64,000 nt of DNA from the NCBI RefSeq assembly GCF_963576615.1, contig NC_088708.1, positions 42,925,115 through 42,989,114 of the forward strand, given 5' to 3'. The stretch comes from Watersipora subatra. Its lineage: Eukaryota. The stretch's first letter is position 1. Each line of letters begins with the position of its first letter. The notes under the pieces were generated by a model. The model did no database searches. It was not told the origin of the DNA and was given only the letters and a program-made list of their open reading frames with translations. This document shows, piece after piece, positions 2,646-38,597 of the stretch. The position numbers were made by a program, and so were the translations under genes.

Positions 2646-5600
2646 TTTTCACTTTTAACACTTTATTGATATAGCTGGACAGACAGAAGTACTAACAAAT
2701 GTACAGACTGACAAACATTAAGATTTATAAATATAGAAAGAAGATAGATTGCGGTCGAACTATAATCTTACTTACTTTGCTCCTAGCAGTTTTACATTTG
2801 GTCTTTTACTCAAGTGATTAAAACTACAAAGTTTACTAGCTAAATTCTTGAGCATCATTTATTACAGATATCATTGGGTGTTCAATTTATTTCAATACTA
2901 TGGTGCAATTTTATGAACCAATCAGATGAGACTTTAATTCAAAGTCTCATTTGATTGAACTAAAGTCCCATCATTTAATGCAACCATTAGTGATTATTAG
3001 GATAATATAATTAGCATATATACAGGGTTGTGACGCATTAGTACTGCTTACTGCACATTAAAAATTAGTTGTTCTGTGTGTGTATACTGTGCAGTAGCAA
3101 AAGCACAAAATGCATTTATATTGCAAAGCTGTTACATGCTTGGTGCCGCTAATGGCACTGCTAATGCAACTACATAGATATCCAAACAAAGATTTACTAC
3201 AGCTGTAATGCTTTTACATCTGGGCATCGGTGAGTACTTATCTACGTGCAGTTAGAATTTATTTGTAATGGTGACCACCCTGAATATACATATGTACCTA
3301 CTGAATATAACATCAGAGTACTCCTACATACATGTACATGTAGGCTGTAGAGGTTGGATTGAATTTCCCAATATTTGATGAAATATTTGACGTTTACATT
3401 TGAGATCTAACGAATTATCAGTTGTTTGTTTTGTGTGAATAGTATGACTGTTTGGTATATATGCATATACTGATATATCGTGAATCTAAAATGAAATTAA
3501 ATGAAGACTAAATAAGAAAAGGGGCAACAACAAATTTGGTAGCAAGTGAGAGTAGCATAGAAAATTTATAAAAACTCGCAATAATATGTAGCAGATAAAT
3601 GATAATAACAAATTATGATTTGATATAACTGAGTATGTAACAGGTTTAAGCAGCAAATCGCTTACCATACTTGAATAAGACAGCTGGAAACCCAGCATCA
3701 ACTATATGAATGATAACAAAATAAAAAGGCTAATGATATTAAAGAAAAAACATTATCTTGTTACATCTTCTCAGAAAATGCATTAAGGATTGTCCTGGCT
3801 GTGTTATAACATGATAAATATTCTTGGTCCTGATTCATGATGACCTTAGTTTACTTTAGTAATACTAAAGGCGAATATGATAAGTGTAAAACACAAGTTA
3901 CCAGCTTGTGGACGAGATAAATGCCTCAGATGGTCCAAGATATAAAGAAATGGTGCTGCCAACTGCTAATGAATCATACTTCTGATTATGAATCAATGAA
4001 ATATTATTGCAAAACACATAAAATGGGGACAAGGTTTGGTGAAATCACAACCCTGTAGTAAAATTGCCTTGTTTGCTGTGTCTTGAGGACAGCTCATCGC
4101 CTGGGACCGTGAGTAAACTTGTGTTGATATGTGTATAGTAAAATAAATTGCTGAATCTAACAGAGGTACATAGTACATACTGCGGATGCAAAATAGTAAA
4201 CAGTACAGTAGGAGTTTGAAGTTGCGTTACTACACATTAACTGGAGCAATTTTTCACGTTTTTAACAGATTACGTTTAGGTTGCGCGACAGCTGTTTCGA
4301 TGGGCTTTTGGCGCCAATTATTAATACTTTTTGGAGCTGTTGCCGTGTTGTCGTGAAGCTTCCGGTTTATACTTTGAACTAGTTTCTAAGGTATCAATTT
4401 AATATAACAGAATCTGAAAATCAGAATTTTAAACAAATTAGTTGGTTTTGTGTGTTTGTTTTATAAGTTTGGGTGTAATAAGTAGATTTCTCACCTTGAT
4501 GGTGATGACTACAACCGTGAGAATGAGTACCACCTCGTCAGTATTCTTTTTAGCTAAAAGCTTATATAGCAATCAGCACACAGTACCCGTACATCAGCAT
4601 TATTTTTTTGAAGAAGGCGATGATAGGGCTTATTTATTTGCGTTTATATTATCTAAAAAACCCTAACTATTAATTTCTCACTGCGACTGTTAAACATCAC
4701 TGAAACCGTTGCACGTAGACCAATGCAAACCCTTAATGGAGGCAAGTTTGTGCTATGGTACTGCGACGTAGCAGCCCTATCGGTAAGAAAATTCTAAATC
4801 GTTGATGTTGTTTTGCCTTATTGAAAAAAATGGGAGTTCATATAACTCACCGGTACTGCGTGCGTGCAGCCTTTCGCAATGCGCGTAATACCTTTGGTGT
4901 AACTGGTTGAAAAATAAAGTAAAAATTTAGAAGTTCTACTTGAATTGAAATTTTTTGCAATCGCGAGACAATGGCAAAAACCTATGTAAAACAACAAGCT
5001 GAACATCTAAGTGTAACACTTCAATCAGCCCTAAAATTTTTTACTCACATAAGCAGAAGAGTTAAATAAGCATAGAAGGTTCCTAGATACACCAAAGCCC
5101 CACCAAAGGTTCTTTATATATATTGTTTTTTTCTTTAATTAGGTGATAGCCAGTCAGCATGCAGACTAATCTGTTATGTATTAGGAATTTGGCAGAAGAT
5201 CAATTTAAAGTCAGACGCCTCCTTGTCACCACCAGTAATCGTTTCGAAAATTGAATTCAAGCTAGTTGTTTACAGTTTGGGTGCTCTACACCTTTGTCTA
5301 TATTAATTTAAGCAGATTTGCCTTTTAATATGCAAATTCAGTTGAGAGTTCAGACAACTGGTTTAGTTTTGGTTGTTTTGGTTTGAATTCAGAATTCAAT
5401 TGTTTTGGTTGAGTTCAGAGCTCAACCAAAACAATCAGGTGATAAGATTTAATAAAAACCTAAAGCAAAATTTTCCAAAAGTTCCGTTTTCCAGCTATTT
5501 AAGAAAAAGAAGAGCTAGTGATTCATATAATATGATTTATATCTAATGGGAAATGGTGTGATGTTCTCTTTTAGTCCTGTAGTAAGCTCATCGATAGAGC

Positions 5601-7205
5601 GAGTGATAGACAACTTCGGCGACTACACGAGAACACTGACTTCCATATCCACATCAACAAAATTATTTCACAAGTTCTATTTATTAAGAACCAATAGATA
5701 TCTTAGGCTTTTAAATAGCATATTTCGGACTCAATAACAAATTTTTTTTACTAAAACTGAAGGCTTACAGCTGAAATCAAAACAATAAAAACAAATATAA
5801 ATGTGAGGCACTCCCTTTCTGCCAACAAGCCTTTCTATACTTATAGTATTTGAGGTAACGAGCTGTCGACTTATACCTGGTTTATTGGCTACCATAGTGA
5901 ACTGCTGCTAAACCAGCCCTCCAATTCAGTTTAAGCTGAATAACCTTAATCTATTAATTTTTTTGGCTTGACAACATTTATTACTAAATAAATATTAGAA
6001 TTATAAAACTAATTAACTTTGATGTTATTTAGTTTATGAATATCAGTCAAATGCAGATTAACCAAGTATAATAAGATATTTTAATGTGCAAATTTGAAAG
6101 TTTACCTCAAACACTGTTTTTTATGGGGCACAACTTGTCCCAATCAACAGGCTACTCTTCTTGTCATCTGTCTATTGTCTCATTGTGCCAGCTGTCGCAA
6201 GAGCAAGTGTATTTATCTTTCTAATACCCTACCTGGCTGTCACCATTCTTAACTTATCCTCATACAGTTTCTGATAGTGTCAGCCTTTCTACCCTACTGT
6301 TTTTCGTCTTATAAACCAATTATGATATCTGTTAGCTATGGAAGATCAACAAGCACGAGCTTTTTGAGTTGCAGTTTTGCTAGAAATTATAACAATATTT
6401 ATAAATACTGGTATTAGTTATTTGCTAGCAGGGATTACCTTTATTTTATTACACTAATGGTCGTATACTCGGCTTTTGTATATAACGTACAGAGTGAGCA
6501 TATTCTTGAGTGAAAGTGATACATATTTCTCTGGTCATTGGTCACATCTAATGCAGGGTATATGATGTAGAGAAAGCATTAAAAGCTCTTTAACCATAGT
6601 TAGTTAGTGTCTAAAATACACTACATTTATCCTTTTATTAGCTGGCCTCGTGGAAGATGGCCTCATGGCTTCTTCTGGCGCCTTGTTGGATTTTTTATCT
6701 AGCCATTGTTGTTAGCCAATTTTTCAAATATCCTGCTTCTACTTTGTTAAAAATAAGATGTTCTGTTGTTATCAAAAAAGACCATCTTTGTATTACAGAT
6801 GTGATTCTTTAATTCAACAAGGTCAACAGTGTACCTTTTAAAATTGTAGGACTAACAATCCAATTTTATATACTCATTCGCATAAACACGCCTTAAGACT
6901 TAAACAAGCCTGCGAGGGGATATAACACGACTATGCCATTACTAACATTTACATGCAGGATAATAAACCAAATTATTGCATGTAGCATGGAATCCGCTTC
7001 ATACTTATACAAAGATCTTCTGTATAATAAATAAATTGAATCGGGCTTAGATAGGGAACAAAATCTAAGAACCTGTAATGCACTTCGACAAAGACTCATA
7101 GCTAGTGAGACAATTATAGCATCTAATGATTTCACAGTTTGAATTCATTCCTTACAGCCTTTCTTTTATTCCATCTCAGGTAACCGTAATCGCTATTCAG
7201 TAAAC

Positions 7206-8939: not shown

Positions 8940-9774
8940 GTAATTTAACCAGTCAAGTTTAATTGGTGCTAACCTGGGCATGACAGCATCTTTGTTGACA
9001 TTGACATACAGTCGAGTTGTATAACTTCCTTTGAATGTGGTTCCAATTACTGTTGTTTCAAGACATGCCTTCCAGCTAGTCATATTTTATGGTTTTTAAC
9101 ATTTCTAGCAGTTTTTTAATGGTTTCAGTCGTTTATAAAAATTTCTCATCATCTGCACCTAGAGTAATATAGCTGTGTCACGTGTCAGAAAAGACTAATT
9201 GTATTTCCTGATATGGATTACTCACAAAACTAAATTACGTTGGTGTTAAGAAAGGTTTCCACCAGTTCATTGTTACTTGTACTTGAGCATATAATATATT
9301 ATATTGCTTTCTCATCAATATATACGCAAAATGATTATACTTAATACGTTTGTTTTCTAGTATTTTATGAGCCAAAGTACATCTAATGCTGGACTCATCA
9401 ATATTTTTCAGTGTAAATATAAAGATTAAAAATACTGCACTTATTTTGTGTCATGGTTTTAAAAGTCTCGAAATTACTGCGTATAAATATGACAACAGGA
9501 CATCACATACTTGATAGCTTTACGCGTATGGCTTTTTTAGAAACATGCTTACTACAGCTGTCTTACGTCCTGTAATTGTTAGTTATTCTGGCCTAAACAA
9601 CTGGGCATGTACCTATGTGACCTAGATATCACATACGCCTTTTATGGGCTATATATGACACTTAATGTGCCTGAAAGTACTATCTGACTGCATGTTACTA
9701 GTTTTTATATGTGTATGTGACCAGTGGATATTACAGTGATTGTAACCTCATATATGACTGTGTGTTATACCTAG

Positions 9775-23456: not shown

Positions 23457-23510
23457 CTTTTCCCTATATGGCGCTTCAAGCATCGCTTCAACATCTAGGT
23501 CATCAGCCAT
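23457..23510 (-). CDS. RBM39: RBM39 (CAPER/HCC1) orthologue, first coding exon (MADDLDVEAMLEAPYREK)
   Basis: The N-terminus is almost identical to RBM39 MADDIDIEAMLEAPYKK. The ATG is at 23510 on the - strand and the donor is GTAATT. Confidence 0.85.
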
Positions 23511-24126: not shown

Positions 24127-25907
24127 CATGTACTAGTTTACAAAACAAGATAAATTTAGTAAGACATTTCCAAAAGTTCTTTGAAGTTGGTTTGGATATT
24201 TAAGTTGTTTGCTTGAACATTTATCAAGTTACATACAGCCTTGTTATTTTTGATCTGATTATCAACATGTGAATACATCTTCAGCAGATGGTAAAACTTA
24301 TGTTGATGAATTTTGGATTGTGATGAACACGTTTAGGATATTATTACACTGGGGTTAGCGAAATTCAGAATTGTATAAGCATGAGAGAAAATTGGAATAG
24401 GTCTACAATGATATTTTAGGAATTACAAAAAATGTTTTCAAATCATTCCTAACTGGATGAAATCACTGACCTATTCCTTTGCATACTATTCAATTTTGTA
24501 ACTAGGTATGTTGGAATCAGGCCTGCCAACCCAAGAGTGGGGCAATGCTTGAAATTTGGTTTTGGGGCAATTGATGTATCAATGATAGTATATATAAAAT
24601 TGTGGAAATTGGAGCAAAAATCTCACCCATTTTTATTTTTTCTTTGGTGTAACTGCGTGAGTATCACGCCCAATGCGTGGGAGTTGGCAGGACTGGTTGG
24701 AATATATAAATTTAATCATCACATTCTGGTTAGAATCATGACTCTTAATGACACACAAACAAATGTTTAGTAAAATAATTATCACAGAGGCTATCGTATG
24801 GTGAGAATAATCAACATTTGAAGAGATTTGAATCAGCATTCTACCCATAATGTATGAACGAACTATGAACGTTTACAAGTTGAACCAACTCGGATTATAG
24901 CAAAATAGTTTTTAAGCACTGCTAAAATTAATTCGTATGTCTAGCCATGACTGGTCATTAAAAACATTTAAGGTCATGTTTTCTGTCCGCTCTGATCCAC
25001 AAGGTTGGTTATTAAGCATAATTATGAGCAGAGATAACCGTTCTACTGTGGCGAAGACAACGATATTGTTTGCAAGCGTAACAGACATCAGAATTAATAT
25101 AGACTTTTATTAGAGGATCTCCTTGAAGTTAAAAACTAAAATGAACTTACAACAAAATTGAATAAATATATCTGTGCAAGTTGGCCACTACGTTAGCGCA
25201 ATCGGTTAATAAATAGCAAAATTCGTTCGACTTAAAATGGCGTAAATTTTAATCGCGATACGCATGCGCATCAAAATACGCCTGTAATTCCTCTAGCGAC
25301 GTGAGAAGTTAAGAGAGGGGACAACCCAATAATGCATATACCTATGCTAACAAAGGCGTTAGATATACGTACCTGTACGGTTTACGTACATGTACTGGCC
25401 TACTGGTAAATCATGTCTCGAATTGCTAAATAAAGCACATTAGATAATTTGATTGCAAATGTCCTATTCTTCAACGCATATGCTTATATTGTAAATGCTA
25501 TTACTTCAGTTATGCAAGTAATCATCGTTCAAAAAACATAATTTTGCTTTGTTAGTATCAAAACACGTTTCAAGTTATCTTTTTCATTGTAGTGAATTTG
25601 GGTGGCCTTTATTATTGATGAGAGTATTCACCTATCTTACAGTGTGAAATCTAGTTTACATTTAACTTGTGCTAAAGCCAGAAATACATACTTATGTAAA
25701 CACTGCACATAAGTACAAGGATTTCCTGTGGCAGGTCCACAGACAACTCTCAGCACCAAAATCCATAACAGATACACGTTTTTAAATTGATACGATAAAG
25801 AAAGTTTTGTAAACTGAGTAATGTTCCTGTGAGACAAACAAACAGTTTCCTCCTATTTGAACACTTAGTAATAATAACAATGAGTCACCCAATTCAAAGA
25901 GTGTGTA

Positions 25908-26405
25908 TATTGGTGTCAGATTGGTAGGTGTCAGAATGTATAGGTGCCAGATTGTCTAAGTGTCAGAGTGTGTAGGTGTCAGAGTGTATAGGTGTTGGAT
26001 TGTGTAGGTGTCAGAGTGTTTAGGTGTCAGAGTGTCTAGATGTCAGTGTGTAGGCGTCAGAGTGTTTAGGTGTCAGAGTGTTTAGGTGTCAGAGTGTTTA
26101 GATGTCAGAGTGTATAAGTGTCAGAGTGTGTAGGTGTCAGAGTGTCTAGATGTCAGTGTGTAGGCGTCAGAGTGTTTAGGTGTCAGAGTGTTTAGGTGTC
26201 AGAGTGTTTAGATGTCCGAGTGTATAAGTGTCAGAGTGTGTAGGCGTCAGAGTGTTTAGGTGTCAGAGTGTTTAGGTGTCAGAGTGTCTAGATGTCAGTG
26301 TGTAGGCGTCAGAGTGTTTAGGTGTCAGAGTGTTTAGGTGTCAGAGTGTTTAGATGTCAGAGTGTATAAGTGTCAGAGTGTATAGGTGTCAACGTGTGTA
26401 GGTGA
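25908..26405. repeat. minisatellite: 16-bp unit (aggtgtcagagtgttt) x about 31, with a 123-bp higher-order repeat x3
   Basis: The 123-bp block recurs at about 26020, 26143 and 26266. Confidence 0.9.
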
Positions 26406-26482
26406 TTGCTGTTTATCTCAGTAGATAAACAAATTAAATAAAAAGAGATGTCGTTGGCCCATTTTTCTATTCACCAATAGTT

Positions 26483-26795
26483 TAACTATTTAGGTCAACT
26501 ATACATGTAAATACTACCAAAGATAAAATGCTAACATAGCTACATTCAAAACAAGAACAAATATTTGCATAATTGAATGGTTTCACTTTATATTCACGGA
26601 TCTAACTGAGAAGCGACAAATCAGTTTTGTTGCTATAACAACAGCTCACAAAATAGCTTCTTCAAGTCCTTTTAGAAAGGCTTTTAGAACTTGATTCTAT
26701 AACTTTACATAAGTGTGTAGTTCTCACACAGTGCACATCTTTTAATAGAATTATTTGAAAGCTAATTCTAGAATAAGACGTTTATAATGGTTTCT
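26483..26795. repeat. flank A, left arm of a 300-bp inverted duplication (about 95% identical to the reverse complement of 30366-30660)
   Basis: Direct comparison shows that the reverse complement of 30400-30660 matches 26483-26745 nearly base for base. Confidence 0.8.
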
Positions 26796-26827
26796 ATATA
26801 TATATATATACATGTATATATATATAT

Positions 26828-26877
<50 letters not shown>
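26795..26877. repeat. (TA)n microsatellite with CATG interruptions
   Basis: This simple repeat lies at the copy-1 3' junction. Confidence 0.95.
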
Positions 26878-26878
<1 letters not shown>

Positions 26879-28334
26879 AAAATTGTTTCCTCACCCTGGT
26901 CAACCCGTATGGGTGGTAATTTCTGCTCTAACTCGGGTCTCCTACCAGAGACCTGGGAGTTTGAGCACACGCCTCAAGGTCTTAGTTGTTCCCAGTAGCG
27001 CACTTTTCTGCAACTCACCTGAGTTGATTGCTGTTGGTATTTGGGCAAGCCACATTTTATGCGCCGGTGTTATTGCGCCTAGTGCCCCAATAATTACTAG
27101 GATTACAGTTGTTCTTACATCCCAGCATTTTTCAATCTCTTCTCCAAGAGGGAGATATTTCTCTACCTTTTCCTTTTCTTTGCTGTCTATATTGTAGTCA
27201 TTGGGTACTGCTATATCTATTATAGTAGCCCTCTTGTGCTCCTTGTCCACCACCACTATATCTGGTTGGTTTGCTAGGACATGCTTGTCAGTCCGGCTGT
27301 AGAAGTCCCAGAGGATCTTAGCGTGGTCATTTTCATTAACCTTACCAGGAGCTTCCCATCTGTGTTGTGGTTTACTAAGGCCATACTCATCACATAGACT
27401 TCTATACACAACACTTGCGACATGATTATGCCGCTCAGTGTATGCGTTTCCTGCTAGCTGCTTGCATCCACTGATGATGTGTTGGATGGTCTCAGGTGCA
27501 TCTTTGCACAGTCTGCATCTAGGATTGTCTCTGGTGTGATAGATTTTTGTTTGGAGTTGCGTTGTTGGGAGCACTTGCTCCTGGGCTGACATGATTAGCG
27601 ACTCTGTATTGGCCGTTAGGTTTCCTTTGTTCAGCCACATATATGTCTGGTGAAGATCACCAACCTTAGATATTTGTTGGTGGTAAGCACCATGAAGAGG
27701 TTTCATGTGCTAGTCAGTTTCCTCATCATCGCTGCGAAAATCCATTGTCAGAGCAGCTGATTGAAATTCAGCTAGCAACCTATCTGAAGTGGCCATGGAA
27801 GCTGCATAGGTGTTGATGCTTTGTTCTTCTTTTTTCACTGTCTGCTGCACACTTTTGAGTCTCCTACCGCCATATTTCCTATCGAGTTACAATCTAGTAG
27901 TATCAGATTTTGGGCAGAGTGCTCCATGCATGGTCAGCAGTTTACGAGTTGCTATATATGTTTCCTTGATGGATTCCTCAGTCCACTTTATTATGCCTGC
28001 TGGATATCTTATTACTGGCAGTGCGTAAGTATTTATTGCCATGACTTGGTTTTTGGAATTATGCTGGCTCCGTAGGACCTGCCGAAGGCGTTTCTTGTAT
28101 TCGGTAATGGCCTTGTGACATACCTCGGCTTCGTGGTTGATGTTGCTTTGCATAATCCCCAAGTACCTGTACCCTTCTTTTATATCTTTGATGTTACCAT
28201 TTGGCATTCTTAGGCCATCTGTGAGCATAGCATGGTCTTTCTTAAGAATTAGCTTTCCACATTTCTCAATACCAAAGGTCATTCTGATGTCCTTGCTGTA
28301 TACCTGAAAGAGTTCTTCATACGCTGCACTCTGC

Positions 28335-28336
<2 letters not shown>
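26878..28336 (-). mobile_element. RLE-type (R2-superfamily) non-LTR retrotransposon, copy 1, 5'-truncated within the RT domain (about 1.45 kb)
   Basis: The 3' end (RC) ..TTACCACCCATACGGGTTGACCAGGGTGAGGAAACAATTTTT abuts the (TA)n tract at 26795-26877, and the 5' end abuts the (TA)n tract at 28337-28382. It contains ORFs 26942..27706 (CCHC plus RLE) and 27887..28336 (RT thumb). Confidence 0.85.
26942..27706 (-). CDS. C-terminal ORF fragment of the retrotransposon ORF: CCHC zinc knuckle (CRLCKDAPETIQHIISGC) plus PD-(D/E)xK restriction-like endonuclease domain (QPDIVVVDKEHKRATIIDIAVPNDY..EKEKVEKY)
   Basis: This 254-aa ORF from the track shows the domain order and motifs typical of R2/R4/NeSL-type elements. 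Confidence 0.8.
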   Translation of the reverse strand: MKPLHGAYHQQISKVGDLHQTYMWLNKGNLTANTESLIMSAQEQVLPTTQLQTKIYHTRDNPRCRLCKDAPETIQHIISGCKQLAGNAYTERHNHVASVVYRSLCDEYGLSKPQHRWEAPGKVNENDHAKILWDFYSRTDKHVLANQPDIVVVDKEHKRATIIDIAVPNDYNIDSKEKEKVEKYLPLGEEIEKCWDVRTTVILVIIGALGAITPAHKMWLAQIPTAINSGELQKSALLGTTKTLRRVLKLPGLW

Positions 28337-28368
<32 letters not shown>

Positions 28369-28382
28369 AGACATATATATAT
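28337..28382. repeat. (TA)n microsatellite between copy 1 (5' end) and copy 2 (3' end)
   Basis: Simple repeat. Confidence 0.95.
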
Positions 28383-28794
28383 AAAAAATTGTTTCCTCAC
28401 CCCGGATACCCCGTATGGGTGGTAAATTCTGCTCCAACTCGGGTCTCCTACCAGAGACCTGGGAGTTTGAGCACTCACCTCAAGATCTTAGCTGTTCCCA
28501 ATAGCGCACTTTTCTGCAACTCACCTGAGTTGATTGTTGTTGGTATTTGGGCAAGCCACATTTTATGCGCCGGTGTTATTGCGCCCAGTGCCCCGTGCCC
28601 CAATGGCTACTGGGATTACAGTTGTTCTTACATTCCAGCATTTTTCAATCTCTTCTCCAAGAGGGAGATATTTCTCTACCTTTTCTTTTTCTTTGCTGGC
28701 TATATTGTAGTCATTGGGTACTGCTATATCTATTATAGTAGCCCTCTTGTTCTCCTTGTCTATCACCACTATATCTGGTTGGTTTGCTAGGACA
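28383..28794 (-). mobile_element. RLE-type non-LTR retrotransposon copy 2: 3'-terminal 410-bp fragment (severely 5'-truncated)
   Basis: It shares the same 3' terminus (..GAGGAAACAATTTTTT then TA repeats) and is homologous to the 3' 410 bp of copies 1 and 4. It is flanked on both sides by (TA)n. Confidence 0.8.
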
Positions 28795-28849
28795 TATATA
28801 TATATATATATATATACAGTGCCGTATATATGTATATATGTATATATAC
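28795..28849. repeat. (TA)n microsatellite between the 5' ends of copy 2 and copy 3, with the 9-mer CAGTGCCGT duplicated by slippage
   Basis: This is a simple repeat. It sits at a 5'-to-5' junction and therefore cannot be an element 3' tail. Confidence 0.9.
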
Positions 28850-30337
28850 AGTGCCGTCAGAACCACCTCTTAACCATAAACCACCTCATAAACCACCTCT
28901 TCTACATGGATGACATCAAGCTGTACGCTAACAAAGAAAGGGAGATTGATTCGCTAATACACCTCACTCAGGTATACAGCAAAAACATCAGAATGACCTT
29001 CGGTATTGAGTAATGTGGAAGGCTCATTCCTAAGAAAAACCATTCTATGCTCACAGATGGCCTAAAAATGCCAAATGGTAACATCAAAGATATAGAAGAA
29101 GAGTACAAGTACTTGGGGATTATGCAAAGCAACGTCAACCACAAAGCCGAGGTGCGCCACAAAGCCATTACCGAATACAAGAAACGCCTTCGGCAGGTCC
29201 TACGGAGCCAGCTCAATTCCAAAAACCAAGTCATGGCAATAAATACCTACATACTGCCAGTAATAAGATATTCAGCAGGCATAATAAAGTGAACTGAGGA
29301 AGCCATCAAGGAAACAGATATAGCGACTCGTAAACTGCTGACCATGCATGGAACACTCCACCCAAAATCTGATACTATTAGATTGTATCTCGATAGGAAT
29401 GATGGTGGTAGGGGACTCAAAAGTGTACAGCAGATAGAGAAAGAAGAAGAGGAAAAATGAAGCATCAAAGCCTATGCAGCCTCCATGGCCACTTCAGATA
29501 AGTTGCTAGCTGAACTTCAATCGGCTGCTTTGACAATGGAGCTTCGCAGTGATGATGAGGAAACTGACTGGCACATGAAACCTCTTCATGGTGCTTACCA
29601 CCGACAAATATCTAAGGTTGGCGATCTTCACCAGACATATGTGTGGCTGAACAAAGGAAACCTAACGGCCAATACAGAGCTGCCAGTTGCTAATCATGGC
29701 AGCCCAGGAGCAAGTGCTCCCAACAAGGCAACTTCAAACAAAATTCTATCACACTAGAGACAATCCTAGATGCAGACTGTGCAAAGATGCACCTGAAACC
29801 ATCCAACACATCATCAGTGGATGCAAACAGCTAGCAGGAAATGCATACACTGAGCGGCATAATCATGTCGCAGGTGTTGTGTATATAAGTCTATAGTATG
29901 AGTATGGCCTTAATAAACCACAACACTGGTGAGAAGCTTCTGGTAAGGTCAATGAAAATGACCGCGCTAAGATCCTCTGGGACTTCTACATTCGGACTGA
30001 CAAGCAGTACCCAATGACTACAATATAAACAGCAAAGAAAAACAAAAAGGTAGAGAAATATCTCCCTCTTGGAGAAGAGATTGAAAAATGCTTGGATGTA
30101 AGGACAACTGTAATCCCAGTAGTCATTGGGGCACTGGGCGCAATAACACCGGCACATAAAACGAGGCTTGCTCAAATACCGACAGCTATCAATTCAGGCA
30201 AGTTGCAGAAAAGTGTGCTATTGGGAACAGCTAATATCTTGAGACGAGTGCTCAAACTCCCAGGTCTCTGGTAGGAGATTCGAGTTAGAGCAGAAATTAC
30301 CACCCATACGGGTTAACCGGGATGAGGAAACAATTTT
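28849..30337 (+). mobile_element. RLE-type non-LTR retrotransposon copy 3, 5'-truncated at the RT YMDD motif, in orientation opposite to copies 1 and 2
   Basis: The + strand ORF fragments 28714..29013 (HLFYMDDIKLYANKEREIDSLIHLTQVYSKNIRMTFGIE), 29047..29292, 29687..29896 (CCHC) and 30092..30274 belong to it. The 3' end ..GAGGAAACAATTTTA is followed by the (TA)n tract at 30337-30365. Confidence 0.85.
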
Positions 30338-30365
30338 ATATATATATACACATGTATATATATAG

Positions 30366-30660
30366 AAATATTCTAGAATTAGCCCTCAAAGTAATTTTAT
30401 TAAAAGATATGCACTGTGTGAGAACTAAACACTTATGTAAAGTTATAGAATCAAGTTCTAAAAGCTTTTCTAAAAGCACTTGAAGAAGCTATTTTGTGAG
30501 CTGTTGTTATAGCAACAAAACTTATTTGTCATTTCTTAGTTAGATCCATGAATATAAAGTGAAACCATTCAATTATGCAAATATTTGTTCTTGTTTTGAA
30601 TGTAGCTATGTTAGCATTTTATCTTTGGTAGTATTTACATGTATAGTTGACCTAAATAGT
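30366..30660. repeat. flank A', the inverted copy of 26483-26795 (right arm of the palindrome)
   Basis: See flank A. Copies 1 and 3 of the retrotransposon lie just inside the two arms in opposite orientation. Confidence 0.8.
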
Positions 30661-30664
30661 TTCT

Positions 30665-30743
30665 GATATATATGATATATATATTTATAATATAAATGAT
30701 ATATATATTATATATATATACTTATGATGTATATATACTTATG

Positions 30744-30803
<60 letters not shown>
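30665..30803. repeat. TA-rich compound microsatellite at the copy-4 3' junction
   Basis: Simple repeat. Confidence 0.9.
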
Positions 30804-30804
<1 letters not shown>

Positions 30805-31045
30805 ATTTGTTTCCTCGCCCTGGTTAACCCGTATGAGTGGTAACTTCTGCTCTAACTCGGGTCTCCTACCAGAGACCTGGGAGTTTGAGCACTCACCTCA
30901 AGATCTTAGCTGTTTCCAGTAGTGCACTTTTCTGCAACTCACCTGAGTCGATTACTGTTGGTATTTGGGCAAGCCACATTTTATGCGCCGGGGTTATTGC
31001 GCCCAGTGCCCCAATGACTACCGGGATTACAGTTGTTTTTACATC

Positions 31046-31630
31046 TCAGCATTTTTCGATCTCTTCTCCAAGAGGGAGATATTTCTCTACCTTTTCTTTT
31101 TCTTTGCTGTCTATATTGTAGTCATTGGGTACTGCTATATCTATTATAGTAGCCCTCTTGTGCTCCTTGTCCACCACCACTATATCTGGTTGGTTTGCTA
31201 GGACATGCTTGTCAGTCCGGCTGTAGAAGTCCCAGAGGATCTTAGCGTGGTCATTTTCATTAACCTTACCAGGAGCTTCCCATCTGTGTTGTGGTTTACT
31301 AAGGCCATACTCATCACATAGACTTCTATACACAACACTTGCGACATGATTATGCCGCTCAGTGTATGCGTTTCCTGCTAGCTGCTTGCATCCACTGATG
31401 ATGTGTTGGATGGTCTCAGGTGCATCTTTGCACAGTCTGCATCTAGGATTGTCTCTAGTGTGATAGATTTTTGTTTGGAGTTGCGTTGTTGGGAGCACTT
31501 GCTCCTGGGCTGACATGATTAGCGACTCTGTATTGGCCGTTAGGTTTCCTTTGTTCAGCCATATATATGTCTGGTGAAGATCACCAACCTTAGATATTTG
31601 TTGGTGGTAAGCACCATGAAGAGGTTTCAT
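31046..31630 (-). CDS. C-terminal CCHC plus RLE endonuclease ORF of copy 4
   Basis: This 194-aa ORF is 99% identical to the copy-1 ORF, with a single difference (I versus M in TYIWL/TYMWL). Confidence 0.8.
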   Translation of the reverse strand: MKPLHGAYHQQISKVGDLHQTYIWLNKGNLTANTESLIMSAQEQVLPTTQLQTKIYHTRDNPRCRLCKDAPETIQHIISGCKQLAGNAYTERHNHVASVVYRSLCDEYGLSKPQHRWEAPGKVNENDHAKILWDFYSRTDKHVLANQPDIVVVDKEHKRATIIDIAVPNDYNIDSKEKEKVEKYLPLGEEIEKC

Positions 31631-32024
31631 GTGCTAGTCAGTTTCCTCATCATCACTGCGAAAATCCATTGTCAGAGCAGCTGATTGAAATTCAGCTAGC
31701 AACCTATCTGAAGTGGCCATGGAAGCTGCATAGGTGTTGATGCTTTGTTCTTCCTTTTTCACTGTCTGCTGCACACTTTTGAGTCTCCTACCGCCATATT
31801 TCCTATTGAGTTACAATCTAGTAGTGTCAGATTTTGGGCAGAGTGCTCCATGCATGGTCAGCAGTTTACGAGTTGCTACATATATCTGTTTCTTTGATGG
31901 CTTCCTCAGTCCACTTTATTATGCCTGCTGGATATCTTATTACTGGCAGTGCGTAGGTATTTATTGCCATGACTTGGTTCTTGGCATTGAGCTGGCTCCG
32001 TAGGACCTGCTGAAGGCGTTTCTT

Positions 32025-32711
32025 TTATTCAGCAATGGCTTTGTGACGTACCTCGGCTTCGTGGTTGATGTTGCTTTGCATAATCCCCAAGTACTTGTAC
32101 TCTTCTTCTATATCTTTGATAGTACCATTTGGCATTCTTAGGCCATCTGTGAGCATAGAATGGTTTTTCTTAAGAATTAGCCTTCCACATTTCTCAATAC
32201 CGAAGGTCATTCCGATGTCCTTGCTGTATACCTGAGTGAGGTGTATTAGCAAATCAATGTCCCTTTCTTTGTTAGCATACAGCTTGATGTCATCCATGTA
32301 GAAGAGGTGGTTTATCTTGGTGCCACTCTTAAACTGGTACCCATAGTGAGTCTTCTCCAGCATATTGCTTAGAGGGTTTAGGCATATGCAGAAGAGCAGC
32401 GGTGATAAGGAGTCACCTTGATAGATGCCTCGCTTAATTTTTACACTTGCCAGCTTTTTGCCATTAGCTTCCAGTTCCGTCTTCCATTTGGTCATCGACA
32501 TCTTGATGAATGCCACAAGAGCAGGGTGAACATTGTACATACTGAGGCACTCAAGTATCCAACTATGGGGAATTGAGTCATAGGCTTTTTTGTAGTCGAT
32601 CCAAGCCTTGGCAAGATTGGTATGCCTTCCTGCTGTCTTGACAGACCGTGCGATCCACCAGTAACTGATGTTTGGCTCCTCGGGTGTTGCGCCCAATTCC
32701 TTTCTGAGCAC
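32025..32711 (-). CDS. reverse transcriptase domain ORF of copy 4 (motifs AWIDYKKAYDSIPH, RGIYQGDSLSPLLFCICL, LFYMDDIKLYA, YLGI)
   Basis: This 228-aa ORF carries the canonical non-LTR RT motifs A, B' and C (YxDD). Its upstream part is frameshifted into ORF 32492..32902. Confidence 0.85.
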   Translation of the reverse strand: MLRKELGATPEEPNISYWWIARSVKTAGRHTNLAKAWIDYKKAYDSIPHSWILECLSMYNVHPALVAFIKMSMTKWKTELEANGKKLASVKIKRGIYQGDSLSPLLFCICLNPLSNMLEKTHYGYQFKSGTKINHLFYMDDIKLYANKERDIDLLIHLTQVYSKDIGMTFGIEKCGRLILKKNHSMLTDGLRMPNGTIKDIEEEYKYLGIMQSNINHEAEVRHKAIAE

Positions 32712-33181: not shown

Positions 33182-33237
33182 TGCCATATATATATATACC
33201 TATGGTATATATATATACCTATAGGTATATATATCTA
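33182..33237. mobile_element. 56-bp TA-rich palindromic insertion with a 7-bp direct repeat (TGGCCTC) inside the copy-4 ORF
   Basis: TGGCCTC is duplicated at 33175-33181 and 33238-33244. Removing the insert and one repeat copy restores the reading frame ..KGELRRP|MSDLPRSSTSKFWKDIW. Confidence 0.5.
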
Positions 33238-33995
33238 TGGCCTCCGCAGTTCACCTTTGAACTGAGAATACACTTTAGATGGATTATTGATGAACAGTTT
33301 GTTCATTCGCTTGTTATCCCGCTTTTTGGTGTACCGCTTCAGTCGTGCCGAGAGTGCTACTAGCTGTTGTTTGGCAGATTCTAGAGCTTCTATTGTGGCT
33401 TCTCTTTTTGGACGATTCAAACTGTAGTTAGATCTTTCACTAAGCCTACTAACTTTCTTGCGCAAGTCCTTGATCTTATTTTGTAGCCTCAGCTGCCAAG
33501 ATGGAATGGCTTGAAGCCTTGTTGACAGTGGCTTAATACCCATCTCCTCCAAGACGACGGTTGCCGTACTGTAGATTAAGGCATTAGTCTCACTGATCGA
33601 TTTAGTTGAGATCGACTCCAGTGCCAAGTTACTGTCTTCTAACAGCTTCTTGGGTATGGTCTTGCTTACTCTCCATAGTGGTACCCTGCTTCCATAATCA
33701 TTAGCAGCTGGCATCTTGTTGATGATATTTTCCACAAGCTCCTTCACCCTTGGGTCAAGGCCAAAGTGCATGTCGTCTTCAACTTGTGAGTCAACACAAG
33801 ACCGTGTATGTGTGACGGTGTGTGTTGATATGCACTCCTCGTTGGTCGAGATTACTTGGGTGAACTGTTCCCTAATTTCATCTACCTCAAGTTCTGATAT
33901 GAGGTGCCGCTTGATTATGTTACTTCTCTGAGCTACAAGTTGCTTAGCGGTTAGTGGCAATTCAGGGCGGATGCTTATCCACAGTTATCTGTAGA

Positions 33996-34081
33996 TACAT
34001 ATAACCGCAATTATATGTATCTGTTTAGTTATACATATATATATATGTATATATATATATATTTAGATATATATATATATA
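33996..34081. repeat. TA-rich microsatellite at the copy-4 5' side
   Basis: Simple repeat. Confidence 0.9.
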
Positions 34082-34201
34082 AAATATTTATAAGTGGAAC
34101 TTCACTCTATAAGTTAAACATTTTATTACTAATAGTTTCATGTGGTACAATCAGTATCACACTCTTCAGATAAAATGTCTAAAATGAATTTCATCCTCCA
34201 G

Positions 34202-38208: not shown

Positions 38209-38312
38209 AGGAGTAACATTGAGGAGTAACATTGAGGAGTAACATTGAGGAGTAACATTGAGGAGTAACATTGAGGAGTAACATTGAGGAGTAACATTGA
38301 GGAGTAACATTG
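38209..38312. repeat. 15-bp tandem repeat x7 (gaggagtaacattga)
   Basis: The direct repeats are visible. They explain the spurious MLLLNVTPQCYSS ORFs. Confidence 0.95.
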
Positions 38313-38314
38313 TC

Positions 38315-38552
38315 GGACGGGTATAACTGGAGTATCTCAGAACCTGCACGCAACCTCAGAACCTCTATGTATGCATGCATACATGCATGTATGCATGCAT
38401 ACATGCATGTATGCATGCATACATGCATGTATGCATGCATGTATGCATGCATACATGCATGTATGCATGCATGCATACATGCATGTATGCATGCATACAT
38501 AGAGGTTCTGAGGTTGCATGCAGGTTCTGAGATATTCCAGTTATACCCGTCC
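38315..38552. mobile_element. foldback/MITE-like element: 55-bp perfect TIRs (GGACGGGTATAACTGGAGTATCTCAGAACCTGCACGCAACCTCAGAACCTCTATG) flanking a (CATGCATACATG)n core, with a 9-bp TSD AACATTGTC
   Basis: The TIRs and the TSD (38306-38314 and 38553-38561) were read directly from the sequence. Confidence 0.55.
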
Positions 38553-38597
38553 AACATTGTCACATCTTGATTAAAGGGATGCAAGAAGTGTAAATAC

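Follow-up and report, generated by a model that had tools for sequence, protein, structure and literature searches.

Elements of the R4/Dong clade, which belong to the long interspersed nuclear elements, or LINEs, encode a reverse transcriptase (RT) together with a restriction-enzyme-like endonuclease and insert into ribosomal DNA (rDNA) or microsatellites, Dong having been found in (TAA)n (PMC7998251, PMC3812793). The clade also carries a diverged N-terminal Myb/SANT-like domain (PMC7998251), and the fish element Rex6 has been assigned to the R4 family (PMC6274825). Here, we describe a LINE resembling these elements in a 64,000-nt stretch of the genome of the bryozoan Watersipora subatra (NCBI RefSeq assembly GCF_963576615.1, contig NC_088708.1, positions 42,925,115 to 42,989,114 of the forward strand), hereafter the window, from whose first letter all coordinates are counted. 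Four copies of the LINE lie in a cluster at 26.5-34.1 kb, and the element is (TA)n-specific. The cluster is probably best understood as a microsatellite landing pad, in which at least four separate insertions of this LINE took place around an older inverted repeat, A-(TA)n-A′, composed of a host flank (A), a TA tract, and an inverted copy of the flank (A′).

The coding content of the element was read from copy 4, whose stitched six-frame translation is 1017 aa long and matches the Pfam RVT_1 profile with an E-value of 1.2e-25 (90.8 bits against a cut-off of 29.6). The best relatives in the PDB are R2 proteins (E = 1e-24), with L1 ORF2p behind at ~1e-14. A second domain, CRLCKDAPETIQHIISGC...HN (CCHC), aligns to the CCHC region of R2, the Pfam zf-RVT profile reaching a sub-threshold 21.7 bits over this knuckle in copy 4, and downstream of it NQPDIVVVDKEHK...IDIAVP was read by eye, without a profile, as a PD..(D/E)xK nuclease motif. 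The domain order is RT, CCHC knuckle, and then the PD..D/ExK restriction-like endonuclease (RLE). The apurinic/apyrimidinic (AP) endonuclease profile Exo_endo_phos has no Pfam match in the stitched 1017-aa protein, and no AP endonuclease was found in the full-length relative P0014 (993 aa), which carries RVT_1 alone. The RT, CCHC knuckle and nuclease motif, the matches to R2, and the lack of an AP endonuclease together therefore identify an RLE-type LINE. The window copies are 5′-truncated before the N-terminal region, which in relatives shows the pattern KW.R.EN..L..C(Y/F)Y.S.P...G(F/Y)M.RM..W; a Pfam hmmscan of the N-terminal regions of these relatives gave no Myb/SANT match.

Judged from sequence, the element would be placed in the R2 superfamily as an R4/Dong/Rex6-like LINE, an informed but provisional placement; its affiliation may instead be with HERO or be NeSL/Togen-like. 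With R4, Dong, and Rex6 it shares the RT, CCHC knuckle, and restriction-like endonuclease, the lack of an AP endonuclease, insertion into simple repeats, frequent 5′ truncation, a short conserved 3′ untranslated region (UTR), and an open reading frame (ORF) of ~900-1000 aa in full-length relatives, the window copies being frameshifted. The nearest named relatives are uncharacterised W. subatra proteins (69-77% identity), followed by RT proteins of the teleosts Oreochromis, Xiphophorus, and Oryzias (58-60% identity), the group in which Rex6 and R4/Dong-like elements have been described. Site-specific insertion into rDNA or a microsatellite, as in R4/Dong, is seen here in the abutment of both 3′ and 5′ ends on (TA)n. 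The target nevertheless differs from those of the named elements, in that Dong in the strict sense occupies (TAA)n and R4 a 28S rDNA site, whereas (TA)n stands at every junction here; further differences from R4/Dong/Rex6 are the use of (CTA)n and (AATC)n by relatives of the element and the bryozoan host.

The four copies differ in length and preservation. Copy 1 (26879-28334, minus strand) is 5′-truncated, has a 752-bp internal deletion, and retains a 254-aa ORF with the CCHC and PD..D/ExK motifs. Copy 2 (28384-28795, minus strand) comprises only the 3′-terminal ~410 bp, including a 7-bp insertion; it is 92.7% identical to copy 1 over 410 bp, and its 5′ end is joined directly to (TA)n. Copy 3 (~28849-30337, plus strand) is 5′-truncated, carries a 73-bp deletion, and is the most decayed of the four. 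Copy 4 (30804 to ~34005, minus strand), the longest at ~3.2 kb, contains the RT, CCHC, and RLE regions interrupted by several frameshifts and stops. Its 5′ limit is uncertain and falls between 33984 and ~34019, tblastn with the relatives P0014 and P0006 reaching 33984, and compared with the metagenomic relatives L004 and L001 it still lacks ~0.3 kb at this end. Small rearrangements were also observed within and beside the copies. The copy 4 ORF is interrupted between ...GELRRP and QRPMSDLP by a ~50-bp TA-rich, internally palindromic insert (33186-33238), a position to which the other copies do not extend. A 32-bp tandem duplication (28794-28857) comprising TA repeats and the first 9 nt of copy 3 lies at the 5′ junction of copy 3, and a 12-bp duplication (CATAAACCACCT, 2.1 copies) lies just within this copy at 28875-28899.

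All four copies terminate in ...GAGGAAACAATTTT(TA)n, and their common terminus, ...CCACCCATACGGGTT.ACC.GGGTGAGGAAACAA(T)TTTT, passes directly into (TA)n. Copy 1 meets at its 3′ junction a (TA)n tract with CATG interruptions (26795-26878; period 2, 42 copies in Tandem Repeats Finder, TRF), which served as its target, and a second tract (28335-28383) separates its 5′ end from the 3′ end of copy 2. Between the head-to-head 5′ ends of copies 2 and 3 lies a third (28796-28848; TRF rows 28794-28857). The 3′ junction of copy 3 is formed by a short tract (30338-30368) with a CATG interruption and a GAAA junction, which is also the inner end of A′, and a TA-rich tract (30662-30803; TRF 30666-30804, period 2) joins the outer boundary of A′ to the 3′ end of copy 4. 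The last tract (34020-34092; TRF 34030-34092) forms the 5′ junction of copy 4, with no LINE 3′ end adjacent. The window holds 17 perfect TA runs of at least six units, which together occupy just 0.53% of its length; of these, 15 fall between 26.8 and 34.3 kb. In an Rfam search of 25.5-34.5 kb, the only matches were far sub-threshold hits of TA tracts to TA-rich miRNA families, which were read as chance.

That the TA repeats are the target of the LINE, rather than a tail that it makes, follows from the 5′ junctions. The truncated 5′ ends of the window copies likewise abut TA tracts, and two of these tracts stand away from any 3′ end: one is shared by the facing 5′ ends of copies 2 and 3, for neither of which it could serve as a 3′ tail, and the other adjoins the 5′ end of copy 4. 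The possibility of LINE-made 3′ tails was rejected on these grounds and because relatives carry the repeat at either end. Read on either strand, (TA)n presents the element with an identical site, so that insertions both ways round are to be expected, and opposed insertions produce long inverted repeats by definition, as they do for copies 1 and 3 and for copies 3 and 4. Specificity for (TA)n by itself explains why each junction has its TA tract and why the copies do not all point the same way.

Relatives of the element in marine metagenome contigs, at 56-60% amino acid identity, point to microsatellite targeting by the lineage as a whole. In one relative (L004, protein P0006, 60% amino acid identity), the 5′ junction consists of (TA)6 and the 3′ junction of (TA)14 (66-78 and 3460-3490); the relative that encodes the full-length 993-aa P0014 (L001) has (CTA)n on either side (5700-5860 and 9090-9125); and in a third (L003, protein P0013) the 3′ end is followed by (AATC)n (4135-4210). 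By these flanking sequences, the element belongs to a single LINE lineage that targets microsatellites and has switched its target repeat as it evolved. An exact metagenome scan with a 22-mer from the LINE 3′ end gave no match.

The layout of the 3′ end is common to all of these relatives and includes two hairpins. The first, GGNCTCT-GGTAG-AGAGN′CC, holds the stop codon in its loop and recurs across the lineage, with a covarying N:N′ pair that is T:A in the window, A:T in L003 and a further relative, L005, and G:C in L001. The second, CACCC...GGGTG (CACCGCC/GGCGGTG in L003), lies just before the T-run. Both fall within 26879-26960 in the window, and the same part of copies 2-4, and within 9015-9091 of L001, 4021-4102 of L003, 3381-3459 of L004, and 3505-3584 of L005. 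Of seven sequences folded singly, most formed the stop-codon hairpin and six formed the distal one, while RNAalifold, applied to a MAFFT alignment of the 3′ UTRs, recovered the short stop-codon helix only, missing the distal CACCC/GGGTG hairpin because indels broke the register. On sequence grounds, the two 3′-terminal hairpins are likely the recognition signal of the RT.

The locus first drew attention through its symmetry. An earlier note made from the letters alone had described a 4.2-kb palindromic structure, with a flank of ~300 bp repeated in inverted orientation at ~95% identity, a TA tract and a LINE copy just inside each arm, copy 1 on the minus and copy 3 on the plus strand, and a short copy near the centre. 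This structure is real. By BLAST, 26484-26775 is 95.56% identical to the reverse complement of 30369-30661 (293 columns, E = 8e-134), far beyond chance, and a repeat finder returned inverted arms of 273 nt, 96% complementary, with 3632 nt between them; the tracts and the opposed copies are as described, and the central copy is copy 2, at the geometric centre. When each arm is taken in full, the 1824 bp of the left one (26484-28307) and the reverse-complemented 1694 bp of the right one (28968-30661) are 92.9% identical over 1678 aligned columns, around a non-palindromic centre of 660 bp. Copy 4, absent from the note, adjoins the right arm across a TA tract and extends the symmetry, in that copies 3 and 4 form a second quasi-palindrome around A′, whose arms of ~1.45 and 1.51 kb are 92.2% identical and stand 466 bp apart. 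The 4.2-kb palindrome is one of two overlapping inverted arrangements in the 26.5-34.1 kb cluster.

Since regions rich in TA and palindromic are hard to assemble, a chimeric fold-back read or a mis-join could in principle have produced such symmetry. Fold-back chimeras yield near-identical arms, however, and the whole-arm alignment here holds 119 substitutions, with a further 162 columns occupied by gaps; truncation points differ among the LINE copies, which also carry private indels. The published assembly of the species, from which the window presumably comes, was made with hifiasm from PacBio HiFi data (13.3 Gb in 2.2 M reads), and these reads, with a mean length of ~6 kb, could span the structure (PMC12902671). 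An assembly artefact is so improbable as to be nearly negligible.

The four LINE copies are independent insertions. Expressed in the coordinates of copy 4, their 5′ ends lie at four differing positions (33012 in copy 1, 31206 in copy 2, ~32325 in copy 3, and ~33990 in copy 4). In an alignment of 1351 shared columns, copy 1 has 24 private sites and copy 4 has 28, and 87 set copy 3 apart from copies 1 and 4, while the 73-bp deletion of copy 3 and its indels of +7 and +6 bp have no counterpart in copies 1, 2, and 4. The closest relative of copy 1 is copy 4 (96% over 1432 bp) and not its mirror partner, copy 3 (~92%). Two in-frame stop codons are common to copies 1 and 4 and missing from copy 3, so either the source was already defective or copy 4 was itself the source of copy 1; the reverse, copy 4 as a retrocopy of copy 1, is excluded, because copy 4 is 1.7 kb longer and holds the 752 bp missing from copy 1. 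Copy 3 has lower identity than copies 1 and 4 to the outgroup proteins P0001, P0002, P0005, and P0007, and its lesser similarity to these four distant outgroups marks it as the most decayed copy. Decay of CpG sites was considered as the cause of its older appearance and rejected, only 7-9 of the 87 differences being of CpG type.

These observations bear on the first of two origins put forward in the earlier note, the inverted duplication of one insertion locus. A flank, TA tract, and LINE would here have been duplicated as a unit in inverted orientation, copies 1 and 3 being mirror images of a single insertion, and copy 2 and the remaining differences being acquired later. Such an event would account for the single BLAST alignment that spans the flank, the TA tract, and the LINE 3′ end (26484-27212 against 30661-30003), and the divergence of the inner flank (6.7%) resembles that of copies 1 and 3 (8.2%), while a clock model in which copy 4 derives from the lineage of copy 1 fits the site counts numerically. 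Divergence by itself does not separate the models, and the grounds for rejection are structural rather than clock-based. Copies 1 and 3 differ in their 5′ ends, each joined to TA as expected of separate truncated insertions; copy 1 matches copy 4 against copy 3 not only at the 87 sites but in all of the indel states above and in the two stop codons; and, with a retrocopy origin of copy 4 from the shorter copy 1 excluded, a rescue would need copy 4 to have gene-converted the whole of copy 1. The region present in all four copies also counts against duplication, as only 2 sites there unite copies 1 and 4 to the exclusion of copies 2 and 3, whereas 19 are private to copy 3. Duplication of one insertion locus is not supported and is, in our judgement, highly unlikely. 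The second origin offered by the note, insertion at an older inverted repeat, comes close to the landing-pad reading favoured here, in which a pre-existing A-(TA)n-A′ was split by LINEs; its suggestion that the two flanks are members of a repeat family is weighed below.

True inverted duplication of host DNA at this locus is limited to the ~300-bp flank. Arm A (26484-26795, plus strand) is non-coding, has a G+C content of 29.8%, and ends at a TTTC(TA)n junction, and arm A′ (30369-30661, minus strand) is its inverted copy with TA tracts at either side, whereas A has TA repeats on its inner side only. In the pairwise alignment, homology starts abruptly at AACTATTTAGG, at the same base in both arms; on the inner side a 15-bp indel is followed by renewed homology through the common TTTC(TA)n junction, and both arms share a CATG interruption within the TA tract. 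No ORF of at least 70 codons was found within flank A, Rfam gave no match to it, tRNA-like or other, no third copy was detected in the 64-kb window even at word size 7, and an exact metagenome scan with a 24-mer of the flank gave no match. Two further identities were tried and rejected, namely a 5′ UTR of the LINE, to which the flank would correspond if it resembled the 5′ end of copy 4 or of relatives, which it does not, and a partner SINE (short interspersed nuclear element), which would need similarity to the LINE 3′ end that the flank lacks.

The arms have not diverged evenly along their length. No difference is seen in the outer 113 bp (26484-26596 and 30549-30661), all 12 substitutions and both indels being confined to the inner 179 bp (6.7% divergence), and any clean run of this kind has a probability of 0.013 by chance. 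This distribution suggests gene conversion from arm to arm, or unequal mutation of the arms. The outer boundary of A coincides with a 7-bp mini-palindrome, AATAGTT-T-AACTATT (26476-26490), and its 8-mer AATAGTTT is found again at the corresponding limit of A′ (30655-30662); the mini-palindrome may be a template-switch or stall site, or a coincidence. No target-site duplication or other direct repeat was found at the outer boundaries of the two arms (left ...AATAGTTT, right TCTGATAT...).

In the history favoured for the locus, A-(TA)n-A′ would have been present first, as a short palindrome rich in AT. It would later have been split at its TA centre by copies 1, 2, and 3, and copy 4 would have entered the TA tract on the outer side of A′, each of the at least four insertions proceeding by target-primed reverse transcription and being 5′-truncated at a differing point. 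For A′ itself, an origin in a break within the self-complementary TA tract, followed by fold-back or template-switch repair, is favoured; the broken end would fold back on the TA repeats and copy A in reverse, and the new end would then join the remaining TA repeats. Repair of this kind is preferred because it accounts for the TA repeats observed on either side of A′. We infer both this order of events and this origin of A-(TA)n-A′ from the present arrangement of the copies and arms. When the LINEs are removed in a hypothetical reconstruction, the resulting sequence is predicted to fold into a single 719-nt hairpin (-321 kcal/mol, z = -51).

Several points weigh against this history. The A-(TA)n-A′ state is a modelled reconstruction rather than an observation, flank A, counted here within the 64-kb window, may be single-copy or belong to a dispersed family, and the TA specificity of the LINE in W. 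subatra is drawn from four copies at one locus together with relatives in other organisms. At up to 6.4%, the branch leading to copy 3 exceeds what each arm of the flank has accumulated (2.2% over its whole length, 3.4% in the inner part), and it fits an inverted repeat that came first only if copy 3 took over some of its divergence from a master that had itself diverged. The lack of differences in the outer 113 bp likewise calls for an additional assumption, either gene conversion between the arms or chance (P ~0.01).

In a different account, flank A belongs to a dispersed repeat family ending in (TA)n, whether microsatellite-associated or similar to foldback elements or miniature inverted-repeat transposable elements with arms A and A′, and the LINE simply made use of its TA tracts. 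Both flank copies start at the same outer base and end at the same TTTC(TA)n, like the termini of an element, and the embedding of A′ in TA repeats on either side is insertion-like. The lack of a further copy in 64 kb says little for a genome published as 784 Mb (PMC12902671). The outer boundaries, however, show none of the target-site duplication that insertion would leave, and flank A has neither an Rfam signal nor similarity to the LINE 3′ end. It would take a coincidence for two independent members of a dispersed family to land less than 4 kb apart with TA end towards TA end, unless they form a single foldback unit, and the shared CATG interruption points to a single common origin. On balance, membership of flank A in such a family is doubtful, though it retains some plausibility.

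A further possibility is that the LINE machinery made A′, either through orphan 3′ transduction of a read-through transcript or through a template switch of the RT at the self-complementary (TA)n. In the transduction variant, the transcript of a minus-strand copy would have run through the TA tract into A and been reverse-transcribed into another part of this tract with heavy 5′ truncation. The order element, (TA)n, and then the reverse complement of A, in the same orientation for copies 1 and 3, agrees with such an origin, as does the bounding of A′ by TA on both sides, like all LINE copies here. Nine of the 12 differences between the arms are G/C in A and A/T in A′, which would fit a larger amount of change in the lineage of A′ if mutation is biased from GC to AT; this 9:2 asymmetry is weak (p ~0.07). 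Against a LINE-made flank, copy 3, which stands beside A′, is descended from neither copy 1 nor copy 2, so that orphan transduction is the one variant left; no polyadenylation or termination signal is evident at the boundary of A, and no precedent was found in the literature searched. This origin of A′ appears very unlikely, and repair of a broken TA tract in the host remains the preferred explanation.

The earlier note called the structure fragile and hairpin-prone. Its stability can be set beside that of palindromic AT-rich repeats (PATRRs), which occur on human chromosomes 11, 17, and 22. The reconstructed A-(TA)n-A′, an AT-rich sequence of ~0.7 kb with an AT-repeat centre and a predicted single hairpin, would be comparable to these repeats. 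The present locus, in contrast, is not a near-perfect AT-rich palindrome of this kind, having whole arms of ~93% identity, the 660-bp central spacer, and flank arms 3.6 kb apart. Formation of cruciforms and hairpins is greatly reduced by a spacer of several hundred bp and ~7% divergence, and the 660-bp spacer and the divergence of the arms argue against strong cruciform potential here. The (TA)n tracts themselves are likelier to be the unstable, more hairpin-prone parts. Copies 1 (26879-28334) and 4 (30804-32235) are, in addition, direct repeats 3.9 kb apart with 96% identity, and could mediate deletion of all intervening DNA.

Among LINEs that use other repeats, the closest parallels in habit are Togen in (TG)n, the microsatellite-specific HERO elements, and the APE-type (AP endonuclease) elements Kibi in (TC)n, Koshi in (TTC)n, Mino in (AC)n, and Waldo in (ACAY)n, all of which, like the present element, target a harmless multicopy repeat and leave arrays of truncated copies with repeat remnants between them. 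Kibi, Koshi, Mino, and Waldo differ in using an AP endonuclease, and none of the elements named has a self-complementary target; only a target of (TA)n type allows insertion in both orientations within one tract, with palindromes as a by-product. A similar comparison can be drawn with R2 in rDNA arrays, the source of the closest solved structures, which combines target-primed reverse transcription by way of a restriction-like endonuclease with recognition of the 3′ UTR, and whose truncated, dead copies pile up at a specific multicopy target. Unlike the LINE described here, R2 is fixed in one orientation at a unique 28S site, and inverted pairs do not arise.

The source of the window is confirmed by the RBM39-like protein XP_067928872.1 of W. 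subatra, of which 8 of 8 pieces matched the minus strand by tblastn, from 23510 down to 14948; pieces lying wholly inside an exon are 100% identical, and the mismatches of the others sit beyond exon ends. The first coding exon of RBM39 (MADDLDVEAMLEAPYREK, 23457-23510, minus strand) is likewise 100% identical to this protein. The gene is encoded by minus-strand exons, its ATG is at 23510, and the left arm of the palindrome begins ~3 kb upstream of this start codon, so that the position upstream of the RBM39 promoter region proposed previously is right in substance. No functional consequence for RBM39 is indicated. On the other side, a string of exons resembling PDZ domains (e.g., ...GLGFSIVGG..., ...GLGLSIVG...) at 37824-59352 on the minus strand indicates a large multi-PDZ gene, of MPDZ/PATJ type by eye, whose 3′ end at ~37.8 kb faces the LINE cluster.

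Other repeats occur in the surroundings of the cluster. A 16-bp minisatellite (GGTGTCAGAGTGTTTA, ~31 copies) with a 110-bp higher-order period occupies 25877-26404, 80 bp to the left of flank A. Within the region of the multi-PDZ gene (minus strand), a perfect tandem repeat of eight 13-bp units (38209-38312) adjoins a self-complementary (ATGC/ATGT)n array (38304-38563), which is 92% self-inverted.

The locus documents a TA-targeting relative of Dong, R4, and Rex6 in a bryozoan, with sister lineages on other microsatellites; the transposon biology itself is largely ordinary. For annotation, the locus adds a (TA)n-specific RLE-type LINE in a bryozoan whose close relatives have switched to (CTA)n and (AATC)n, and it provides material for the study of target change in R2-superfamily elements, which are currently of interest for programmable insertion. 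It also calls for caution, in that long inverted repeats around (TA)n in W. subatra need no special duplication mechanism. Should the local fold-back origin of A′ be confirmed, the locus would offer a modest example of a TA-repeat-driven rearrangement 3 kb upstream of a conserved gene; if A′ was instead made by the LINE, TA-specific RLE LINEs would create palindromes of host DNA and could seed AT-rich palindromic fragile sites.

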